Part shown: in pieces, positions 36,468-37,415 of the stretch
How positions within the stretch are numbered: the stretch's first letter is position 1
Layout of the letters: the number at the start of each line of letters is the position of its first letter
Assembly (NCBI GenBank): GCA_036930585.1
Contig: GCA_036930585.1_3066.1
Direction: 5' to 3' (one strand)
Length of the DNA: 64,000 nucleotides
Source: a phage
Notes under the pieces: generated by a model
Database searches by the model: none
What the model was told of the DNA's origin: nothing
The model's input: only the letters and a program-made list of their open reading frames with translations
Position numbers and translations under genes: made by a program

Positions 36468-36543
36468 TGGTCGAGGCAGTAGGGATCGAACCTACGACCC
36501 AGGACTTAGAAGGTCCTTGCTCTTCCTTCTGAGCTATGCCTCG
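36468..36543 (-). tRNA. tRNA-Arg (anticodon TCT)
   Basis: hand-folded cloverleaf, T-loop GGTTCGATCC, encoded CCA. Confidence 0.85.
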
Positions 36544-36547
36544 TAAT

Positions 36548-36623
36548 TGGGGTGACCGATGGGAGTCGAACCCATGACTACGAGAATCACAATCTCGAGT
36601 TCTACCAACTAAACTACGGCCAC
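36548..36623 (-). tRNA. tRNA-His (anticodon GTG)
   Basis: hand-folded; acceptor 7 bp; no encoded G-1. Confidence 0.7.
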
Positions 36624-36737
36624 ATTAATACCTACTCCAACAATCAAGATGTCTTCACACGAAATTAAGAGAAGAGTGATCAGTTCAACCCCGATAATCG
36701 CGTCAAGTAGATATTAATGTGACAATTGTCACAAATT

Positions 36738-36812
36738 TGGCGGACGTGATAGGATTCGAACCTATAACCAATCGCTTAACAGGCGATCGCTCTGCCATTG
36801 AGCTACACATCC
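36738..36812 (-). tRNA. tRNA-Asn (anticodon GTT)
   Basis: hand-folded; T-loop GGTTCGAATCC. Confidence 0.8.
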
Positions 36813-36816
36813 AAAT

Positions 36817-36903
36817 TGGTGGGGAGTGATGGAGTCGAACCACCCGAGTCGCAATGACAATGGATTTACAGTCCACACCGCTACCTCTACGGGATAACTC
36901 CCC
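36817..36903 (-). tRNA. tRNA-Tyr (anticodon GTA), long variable arm
   Basis: hand-folded; 87 nt. Confidence 0.75.
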
Positions 36904-36916
36904 TTAATTCTTAATT

Positions 36917-36991
36917 TGGTGGCCCTGGGTGGAATTGAACCACCATCTGGCGATTATGAGTCGCTTGCTTGAACCTTCCAGCTACAGGGCC
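36917..36991 (-). tRNA. tRNA with CAT anticodon (Ile2/AUA-reading or elongator Met)
   Basis: hand-folded; G1-C72 paired so not initiator. Confidence 0.75.
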
Positions 36992-36992
36992 T

Positions 36993-37068
36993 TGGTGCTG
37001 ATTGACGGAATCGAACCGCCGACCTTCTCATTACAAGTGAGTTGCTCTACCTACTGAGCTAAATCAGC
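36993..37068 (-). tRNA. tRNA-Thr (anticodon TGT)
   Basis: hand-folded. Confidence 0.85.
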
Positions 37069-37073
37069 AAAAC

Positions 37074-37163
37074 TGGCGGAGGCGATAGGATTTGAACCTA
37101 TGAGTCGCCGGAGCGACTGCCGGTTTTCAAGACCGGTGCATTAAACCACTCTGCCACACCTCC
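37074..37163 (-). tRNA. tRNA-Ser (anticodon TGA), long variable arm
   Basis: hand-folded; 90 nt. Confidence 0.8.
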
Positions 37164-37165
37164 AG

Positions 37166-37239
37166 TCTCCATACAAGGATTTGAACCTTGGACCTCCTGA
37201 TCCCAAATCAGGCGCTCTACCAAACTGAGCTACACGGAG
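37166..37239 (-). tRNA. tRNA-Pro (anticodon TGG), CCA not encoded
   Basis: hand-folded; 2-nt spacer to tRNA-Ser. Confidence 0.8.
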
Positions 37240-37249
37240 TAAATTAAAT

Positions 37250-37323
37250 TGGAGCGGATAATGAGAATCGAACTCACATCATCAGATTGGAAGTCTGAGG
37301 TAATGCCATTATACGATATCCGC
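37250..37323 (-). tRNA. tRNA-Gly (anticodon TCC)
   Basis: hand-folded; discriminator U. Confidence 0.85.
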
Positions 37324-37328
37324 AAATT

Positions 37329-37415
37329 TGGTGCGAGAAGTGGGACTCGAACCCACAAGGAAATCATTCCGCAGCATTTTAAGTGCTGTGCCTTTACCAA
37401 TTTGGCCATTCTCGC
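37329..37415 (-). tRNA. tRNA-Leu (anticodon TAA), long variable arm
   Basis: hand-folded; 87 nt. Confidence 0.8.

Follow-up and report, generated by a model that had tools for sequence, protein, structure and literature searches.

Gene content of the tRNA region

A stretch of 64,000 nucleotides of phage DNA (contig GCA_036930585.1_3066.1 of assembly GCA_036930585.1; the whole stretch is called the window below) carries a compact cluster of ten tRNA genes at positions 36468-37415, all on the minus strand, and ARAGORN found no further tRNA gene in the window. An initial annotation, made from the sequence alone, had folded these tRNAs by hand. The ten minus-strand genes, their order, anticodons and outer coordinates and the 114-nt gap within the cluster were all reproduced by ARAGORN, with Rfam in agreement; no anticodon was reassigned, and no pseudogene was called by ARAGORN among the cluster tRNAs of the 64-kb window (Table 1). 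All ten genes fold into a cloverleaf with the anticodon at positions 34-36 (ARAGORN and Rfam), and all exceed the RF00005 gathering score of 29 bits. Nine of them do so at 60-74 bits, and tRNA-Tyr, marginal at 30.2 bits, is held back by its atypical D-arm.

The 2.4 kb around the cluster are 97.6% identical to Escherichia phages slur03/slur14 (blastn), and 38 records, from Tequatrovirus genomes, cover at least 80% of this region at 95-97.6% identity. The RefSeq record of slur14 annotates the same ten tRNAs and the same HNH endonuclease upstream of them, and the cluster and HNH gene are likewise annotated in phage KarlGJung (Bas37), where the tRNA with a CAT anticodon is labelled tRNA-Ile (ATA). 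The same ten tRNAs, in the same order and behind the same HNH gene, occur in slur03/slur14, ACG-C40, MLF4, KarlGJung (Bas37) and others with point differences only, which contradicts the idea that the arrangement is absent from other Tequatrovirus genomes. The ten-tRNA cluster is therefore already known, since relatives carry the same annotation and its T2-type core has been characterised experimentally. Taken as a finding by itself the cluster matters little, because dozens of Tequatrovirus genomes have it annotated and the T2-type core was dissected in 2008. As set out below, this is very probably the common, T2-type form of the tRNA region found in T4-like coliphages (Tequatrovirus), with a gene content that results from homing-endonuclease-driven cassette exchange.

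Table 1. Features of the tRNA region and its flanks, in the direction of transcription (positions in the window)
Feature	Position	Strand	Evidence and remarks
tRNA-Gln relic, first 7 nt (TGGGAAT, 5' acceptor strand)	38037..38043	-	T4/window junction comparison
Predicted HNH homing-endonuclease gene, 202 aa from ATG	37422..38030	-	phrog_14736 HNH endonuclease, E 5.5e-124
tRNA-Leu(UAA)	37329..37415	-	ARAGORN; Rfam 64 bits; 86/87 identical to T4
tRNA-Gly(UCC)	37250..37323	-	ARAGORN, Rfam; T4 identity 73/74
tRNA-Pro(UGG)	37165..37239	-	ARAGORN, Rfam; T4 identity 75/75; CCA not encoded, likewise in T4
tRNA-Ser(UGA)	37074..37163	-	ARAGORN, Rfam; T4 identity 86/88
tRNA-Thr(UGU)	36993..37068	-	ARAGORN, Rfam; T4 identity 73/76
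CAT-anticodon tRNA	36917..36991	-	ARAGORN, Rfam; T2 identity 75/75
tRNA-Tyr(GUA)	36817..36903	-	ARAGORN; Rfam 30.2 bits; class II, D-arm atypical; T2 86/87, T6 85/87
tRNA-Asn(GUU)	36738..36812	-	ARAGORN; Rfam 74 bits; T2 identity 75/75
Gap of 114 nt between Asn and His	36624-36737		ARAGORN coordinates
Perfect 16-bp palindrome TGTGACAATTGTCACA	36718..36733		Between Asn and leader; overlaps first base of P1
Structured RNA element, 5' leader of tRNA-His, four helices	36624..36721	-	RNAalifold, covariance model
tRNA-His(GUG)	36548..36623	-	ARAGORN; Rfam 63.9 bits; C73, T at -1
tRNA-Arg(UCU)	36468..36543	-	T2 identity 76/76; T2 type, not T4 type
ORF, 116 aa, no known function	36099..36449	-	phrog_3355, E 3.7e-53; 101/117 identical to T2 ORF adjoining tRNA-Arg
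rnaD (T4 'species 2' stable RNA)	35983..36099	-	87% identical to T4 rnaD
rnaC (T4 'species 1' stable RNA)	35838..35976	-	98.6% identical to T4 rnaC
Intrinsic terminator after rnaC	35764-35787		Terminator search

Comparison with the T4 and T2 alleles

The T4 annotation lists the eight tRNAs that the initial annotation had named for this phage, in the order trna.2, Gln, Leu, Gly, Pro, Ser, Thr, Ile, segB, Arg, rnaD, rnaC, e.8. The window has its cluster at the same locus between trna.2 and e.8, and the five tRNAs from Leu to Thr are 96-100% identical to those of T4. When the window was compared with T4 by blastn, the match (97%) extended from Leu to Thr and over the first ~20 nt of the CAT tRNA; the remainder of the CAT tRNA was unmatched, as were the genes for Tyr, Asn, His and Arg, the gap, the 116-aa ORF and the HNH gene, and T4 segB matched nothing in the window. 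T4 thus differs in having segB and tRNA-Gln, both missing from the window, and in being without Tyr, Asn and His. With T4 Ile and Arg, the CAT and Arg tRNAs share only 65% and 69% identity, and they resemble Escherichia coli ileX (77%) and argU (80%) more closely; that these two are not the T4 genes had escaped the initial annotation.

The comparison with T2 (genome AP018813) shows where these genes belong. The region is shared with T2 in position, orientation and the absence of segB, and the CAT, Asn and Arg tRNAs are 100% identical, with tRNA-Tyr identical at 86 of 87 positions. In T2 the Arg gene is also followed by an ORF of about 116 aa (101/117 aa identical) and then by rnaD/rnaC. T2 differs from the window in having tRNA-Gln where the window has the HNH gene, an ORF where the window keeps tRNA-Thr, and no counterpart of a 190-nt cassette (leader and tRNA-His) that lies between Asn and Arg in the window. 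Phages T2L, RB1 and RB3 were reported to be segB-less and to carry tRNA-Met(CAU), Tyr, Asn and Arg together with two ORFs (Brok-Volchanskaya et al. 2008, PMC2330249). According to the same study SegB recognises a conserved T-arm and prefers cutting in the tRNA-Asn of T2L, and its homing swaps ~1250 bp of the segB-less allele for that of T4 (PMC2330249). Both the synteny and the distal block thus place the region among the T2-type (segB-less) regions of Tequatrovirus.

We also counted the two alleles in the phage database. The T2-type allele, taken as coverage of at least 80% of CAT-Tyr-Asn, was present in 383 phage records and the T4-type allele, as coverage of Arg-segB-Ile, in 126, so that the former is about three times commoner than the T4 Ile-segB-Arg allele and T4 represents the minority form. 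This reverses part of what the initial annotation had proposed, namely that the phage had gained His, Asn and Tyr and lost Gln. Relative to T4, Tyr, Asn and His are indeed extra and Gln is missing, and His is a real insertion; the distal block, however, matches the published T2-type segB-less allele, which is commoner than that of T4, and therefore Tyr and Asn were not gained by this phage. The cluster consists of a proximal block, Leu-Gly-Pro-Ser-Thr, held in common with T4, and a distal block (Ile2/CAT, Tyr, Asn, Arg and the 116-aa ORF) equal to that of T2, which T4 would have exchanged for Ile-segB-Arg through SegB homing. Its gene content would then stem from homing-endonuclease-driven cassette exchange and not from the stepwise gain of tRNAs.

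Two further observations concern individual genes of this comparison. The 3' CCA is encoded in the tRNA-Ser of the window (37074-37163; ending in CCTCCGCCA) and not in that of T4 (L002 4118-4206; ending in CCTCCGT). In phage Kha5h (L005 1509-1664) the tRNA-Asn and tRNA-Arg alleles are identical to those of the window at 59 of 75 and 58 of 76 positions; the acceptor stems are as in the window, and the anticodon and T stems are different and fully compensated. The Asn alleles of Kha5h and the window might differ in their sensitivity to SegB, because the SegB target lies in the T-arm of Asn.

Replacement of tRNA-Gln by an HNH gene

An HNH endonuclease gene does lie where the cluster begins, as the initial annotation had stated (Table 1). 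An in-frame TTG is present upstream of its ATG, at 38054. The Pfam HNH match of the protein is weak (17.3 bits, below the cut-off), and the pattern CxxC...HxxxN...CxxC is visible in the translation. The protein also shows 35% identity over 170 aa (E 1e-21) with hegA of T5, which is among the HNH endonucleases encoded within the T5 tRNA region. Judged by this motif, the gene is a predicted free-standing homing endonuclease.

In T4, T2, T6 and Kha5h the site is occupied by tRNA-Gln, so the HNH gene shows a presence/absence polymorphism at a homologous locus. The breakpoints are exact. The T4 junction reads ...TAATAAT, then TGGGAATTAGCC...(Gln)...TTCCCAGC, then GCGAGAATGG (Leu), and the window reads ...TAATAAT, TGGGAAT, then CATATTATG (HNH)...TAATATAAC, then GCGAGAATGG (Leu), with homology to T4 resuming at 38037 (blastn). 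The HNH gene thus replaces tRNA-Gln from its eighth nucleotide to its end, as though it had precisely overwritten the tRNA. Only 64 phage records contain it, with an identity of 95% or more in each, a distribution typical of a recently spreading homing element.

A structured leader upstream of tRNA-His

The gap and tRNA-His together form the single 190-nt cassette that is inserted relative to T2: where T2 reads GCCAAAT followed by ACGAGG, the window has GCCAAAT, the 190 nt and then TACGAGG. The cassette, inserted between Asn and Arg, consists of tRNA-His and a structured RNA leader. From an alignment of nine distinct copies, RNAalifold gave a consensus of four helices with 29 pairs, nine of them with compensatory changes. 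The closing helix, P1, is 14 bp long (36705-36718 pairs with 36624-36637), and its 3' strand stops at position -1 of tRNA-His. In a counting test 95% of the cells were paired, as against 37-48% with slid partners, and double changes affected nine pairs as against 0-4 in the slid controls; none of 500 shuffles reached the observed covariation. A covariance model gave the window copy 110 bits when read in the tRNA sense; on the opposite strand no copy exceeded 21 bits.

The gap sequence was found in 356 phage records, 352 of which cover at least 80% of it. Its hosts belong to Tequatrovirus, Jiaodavirus, Karamvirus and Gelderlandvirus, with one Vequintavirinae phage, and the leader occurs in at least eight phage genera. 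It invariably sits in a tRNA cluster, and in nearly all cases tRNA-His follows it directly. The covariance model found no copy in T4, T6, Kha5h or CM8. A degenerate pattern scan of IMG/VR returned 59 loci, only five of which were true leader copies, all of types already seen. Roskildevirus (FBB1) has the P1 helix alone, as a simple hairpin, and similar hairpins with weak matches to the covariance model occur in Angelvirus (12.5 bits, E 0.5) and Kanagawavirus (23.3 bits, E 0.005). A host origin was rejected, since neither 5,426 complete E. coli genomes nor 72,556 plasmids gave a match.

Another possible origin of the gap is a decayed tRNA, such as Gln, or a promoter or spacer without function at the RNA level. 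Related Klebsiella phages have a tRNA-Gln annotated beside the matching stretch, and the gap contains a TTGACG hexamer and the palindrome of Table 1. The match under the labels 'tRNA-His, tRNA-Gln', however, spans the Gln-His spacer, with the Gln gene itself outside it, and the gap gives no tRNA signal and no Rfam match at E<=5 over 36624-36737. As for a promoter or terminator, the sense strand has no sigma-70-like site, for want of an acceptable -10 hexamer, and no terminator was found in the gap. The four helices with compensatory changes, whose G-U pairs are valid only on the tRNA-sense strand, also argue for a function as RNA, and this explanation of the gap is largely refuted and very improbable.

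Some other candidates were considered for the leader. By eye it contains no hammerhead, twister or HDV core, and no similarity to T4 rnaC or rnaD was found. The P3 region was tried as a mimic of the 3' end of 16S rRNA and rejected: one version was not significant, with 821 of 1000 shuffles as good, and a second, matched by 21 of 1000 shuffles against the last 80 nt, was matched by 203 of 300 against the whole rRNA operon. A 14-mer shared with Salmonella StyR-36 (PMC4361174) was considered a coincidence.

The leader is unmarked in all inspected annotations of clusters identical to that of the window, and no other inspected record annotates it either; a limited literature search turned up no account of the leader or of the U at -1. 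An unannotated structured RNA coupled to a tRNA-His that lacks G-1 is thus the modestly new residue of this cluster.

Two copies of the leader have unusual surroundings. In Escherichia phage W70 (Vequintavirinae; L011 393-490) a copy of 97 bits lies between tRNA-Gly and tRNA-Gln, 9 nt upstream of Gln, in a record that annotates no tRNAs there. As this copy does not adjoin His, the leader can move independently of tRNA-His. In Salmonella phage SEA1 (L008 401-531) the leader is intact (98 bits), and the downstream tRNA-His has decayed until only GTGGTTATAATTC... is left, with no tRNA-His called by ARAGORN. The palindrome TGTGACAATTGTCACA would form a 6-bp hairpin as RNA when folded and is found only in the Tequatrovirus copies, with one mismatch in slur14; it fits both half-sites of the E. 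coli CRP consensus, TGTGA-N6-TCACA.

tRNA-His without G-1 and the stable RNAs of T5 and T4

The tRNA-His of the window is 79% identical to E. coli hisR and has the same GUG anticodon loop and the discriminator C73 that are canonical for bacterial tRNA-His. The genome-encoded G at -1 of E. coli hisR is replaced by T. All 14 other listed phage copies belonging to this tRNA-His family likewise have T at -1, as do T5, FBB1 and AsFcp_2; a G stands there in two tRNA-His genes from unrelated viral contigs. The T-stem shows compensatory changes among the phage copies (ATGGG/CCCAT, GCGGA/TCCGC, GACGG/CCGTC), indicating that the cloverleaf is under selection. In bacteria, G-1, which pairs with C73, is together with its 5' phosphate the major identity element for HisRS, the histidyl-tRNA synthetase (PMC9976931).

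T5 (NC_005859) offers a parallel. The 106-nt RNA that lies directly 5' of its tRNA-His is annotated as 'RNAIII, stable RNA with unknown functions'. It shares the layout of the leader, with an end-to-end helix of 14/14 bp, as in the window, whose 3' strand stops at the U at -1. The tRNA-His of T5 also has C73 and no G-1, and its tRNA cluster also holds HNH endonuclease genes. RNA III differs from the leader in its internal helices and has no detectable sequence similarity to it, and T5 belongs to another phage family, the Demerecviridae. In the RefSeq annotation of T5 (L087 8207-8284) tRNA-His begins one nucleotide before G1, at the U, so its annotators count U-1 as part of the mature tRNA. T4 rnaC and rnaD, both present in the window, are likewise small non-tRNA RNAs whose function is unknown and which are processed from the same tRNA transcription unit. 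They differ from the leader in sequence, to which they show no similarity, and in their location downstream of Arg and the ORF, at the cluster's 3' end.

The leader would be co-transcribed with the cluster tRNAs, and because helix and U at -1 are always found together, we infer that the helix takes part in the processing or charging of tRNA-His. It is tentatively suggested, as a possibility that we consider rather unlikely, that the two features form a conserved non-canonical route to make or use tRNA-His in coliphages from the T-even relatives to T5, in which the 14-bp helix would control 5' processing of a tRNA that lacks the encoded G-1, a nearly universal feature elsewhere, and the excised leader, about 100 nt long in most lineages, would persist as a stable RNA with a function. 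If this were true, either processing would leave U-1 in place or the G-1-less tRNA would be poorly charged by HisRS and have a role beyond ordinary decoding. The leader offers a tractable way to study the processing and charging, in E. coli, of a tRNA-His without G-1, and also the role of the long-known stable RNAs in phage tRNA clusters.

Codon usage and the assignment of the CAT tRNA

We compared the codon usage of 66 long ORFs of the window with that of 41 ORFs of E. coli MG1655. The codons most enriched in the phage over the host are AGA (8.0x), ATA (5.9x), TCA (3.8x), GGA (3.7x), AAT (3.6x), ACA (3.3x) and TTA (3.1x), and all seven are read by tRNAs of the cluster, provided that the CAT tRNA is Ile2.

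The CAT tRNA is best read as a predicted tRNA-Ile2, which would decode AUA after lysidine modification, and not as Met or fMet. Its anticodon stem-loop, GCGACTCATAATCGC, is identical to that of E. coli ileX, its overall identity is 77% to ileX and 70% to metT, and it has G1-C72, C4-G69 and C5-G68, of which C4-G69 and C5-G68 are determinants for TilS; features of an initiator tRNA are absent. The enrichment of its presumed codon, ATA, adds to the grounds for this assignment.

Compensation for codons that are rare in the host was the reading given to such tRNAs in the initial annotation. It fits nine of the ten tRNAs, weakly in the case of Pro (CCA 1.6x), and does not fit His, whose usage is only 0.63x that of the host. 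The tRNAs with U34 or CAU anticodons, together with Asn and Tyr, would top up the host tRNAs for codons and amino acids that this AT-rich phage over-uses. In its pure form, the compensation hypothesis holds that the extra tRNAs are kept to decode codons frequent in the phage and rare in the host. Six of the seven top codons (AGA, ATA, TCA, GGA, ACA and TTA) are cognate to tRNAs of the cluster, the seventh, AAT, is read by Asn-GUU through wobble, and Tyr (1.79x, first) and Asn (1.72x, third) are within the three most over-used amino acids. Experiments on tRNA-Tyr, however, point to anti-defence (PMC13096335), and the G34 of Tyr, Asn and His pairs best with codons ending in C, and the phage avoids these. 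No tRNA-Lys is present in the cluster despite a 1.75x over-use of Lys, and tRNA-Gln has been lost to the endonuclease gene though its codon CAA is over-used 1.57x. With the under-use of His added to these, pure compensation is a real possibility that falls somewhat short of an even one.

A possible role of the tRNAs in counter-defence

Colicin E5 cleaves four GUN (queuosine) tRNAs, and those for Tyr, Asn and His are among them, which counts in favour of a second hypothesis. On this view the main reason for keeping Tyr, Asn and His, and perhaps all of the cluster, would be to replace host tRNAs destroyed by tRNA-targeting defences such as Septu/PtuAB, retron-Eco7, PARIS, PrrC and colicin-E5-like nucleases, and homing endonucleases would help to spread or amplify the genes. 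Septu cleaves tRNA-Tyr of the host and of T6 alike (Chihara et al. 2026, PMC13096335). In that study the T6 tRNA-Tyr rescued infection from Septu when it was amplified by SegB or over-expressed, deletion of the T6 tRNA region sensitised the phage to Septu, and T4, without Tyr, could not escape (PMC13096335). The tRNA-Tyr of the window is 85/87 identical to this experimentally detected and tested T6 tRNA (PMC13096335). Retron-Eco7 and PARIS are countered by T5 tRNAs according to citations in other papers, and His has no rationale in codon demand. Against replenishment stand the anticodon loops, which are those of the host, so that an anticodon-loop nuclease would cut the phage tRNAs too, and the cleavage of both tRNA-Tyr species by Septu (PMC13096335); moreover, tRNA-His and tRNA-Asn are not known targets of any defence system in this setting. 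On balance we regard this hypothesis as almost evenly poised, with slightly more to doubt than to believe. In the T2-type reading favoured above, too, the cluster tRNAs would sustain translation when host defences cut host tRNAs, as has been shown for the near-identical T6 tRNA-Tyr against Septu (PMC13096335), and the region is a clean example of phage tRNAs, such as Tyr, that serve in counter-defence as well as in codon supply.

Exchange of single genes within the cluster

Close relatives of the window differ by gene-for-gene swaps. An ORF replaces Thr in OE5505 as it does in T2, a homing endonuclease replaces Pro in CM8, and Kha5h has Gln and is without His. The region is a clean example of the way in which phage tRNA clusters are remodelled, one gene at a time, by homing endonucleases (SegB, HNH).

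In Shigella phage CM8 (L081 1643-1746) the 104-nt 'gap' between Arg and the CAT tRNA proved to be a chimeric pseudo-tRNA, in which the 5' part of Tyr is joined to the 3' end of His at the common T-loop GGTTCGACTCC, with Asn, the leader and most of His deleted. The chimera shows that recombination occurs between tRNA T-arms within the cluster.

On a neutral view, the tRNA set would be a by-product of tRNA-gene recombination and homing-endonuclease traffic, with little selection on the set. The whole-gene swaps at tRNA boundaries in close relatives (Gln/HNH, Thr/ORF, Pro/homing endonuclease and His present or absent), the Tyr/His chimera of CM8 and the recognition of a conserved T-arm by SegB (PMC2330249) are all in line with such mosaicism. 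The cloverleaves are nevertheless perfect, alleles differ by compensatory changes in the T-stems of His and in the stems of Asn, and the anticodons fit the most enriched codons far too well for chance, which makes little selection on the set improbable.

We return to the T2-type region assembled by cassette exchange, whose tRNAs would both top up and replace those of the host, and to several points that weigh against it. Host codon usage was sampled from 41 MG1655 ORFs only, and neither His codon is enriched in the phage (CAT 0.97x, CAC 0.31x). The tRNA-His is without the G-1 on which E. coli HisRS relies, so its predicted role in translation is uncertain. A loop-mutation model has been proposed for evading anticodon nucleases (PMC10264068); in the window, Tyr, Asn and His have the same 7-nt anticodon loops as their E. 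coli counterparts, and evasion by this means was rejected. Any protection would consequently come from dosage and not from resistance to cleavage, and Septu does cut the T6 tRNA-Tyr as well (PMC13096335). Homology between the leader and T5 RNA III is unproven, as the best full-length placement of the covariance model in T5 (8283-8396) coincides with RNA III and scores only 9.2 bits (E 3.3).

Flanking genes and downstream features

The ORF list, blastn against T4 and the annotations of slur14, T4 and T2 identify gene 1, 57A, 57B, ipI and trna.2 as the upstream neighbours of the cluster, and rnaD, rnaC and e.8 as the downstream ones. The whole region would form one transcription unit, with trna.2/ipI/57B/57A/gene 1 upstream and rnaD, rnaC, the terminator and e.8 downstream. 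The 116-aa ORF is the equivalent of one of the two ORFs (trna.1/trna.2) reported for the tRNA region of T2L (PMC2330249).

Between e.8 and rnaC the window has about 1.2 kb (34543-35754) that is extra with respect to T4 and contains two ORFs, 34551-35114 and 35240-35713. These are paralogues of one another and match the same family of no known function, phrog_2280 (E 2e-53 and 2e-60). Behind each of them the rnaC-terminator hairpin, AGCCCCGACCGAAAGGTTGGGGCT, recurs in identical form, with terminators at 35209-35232 and 35764-35787, and the pair of ORF and terminator looks like a tandem duplication of one unit.

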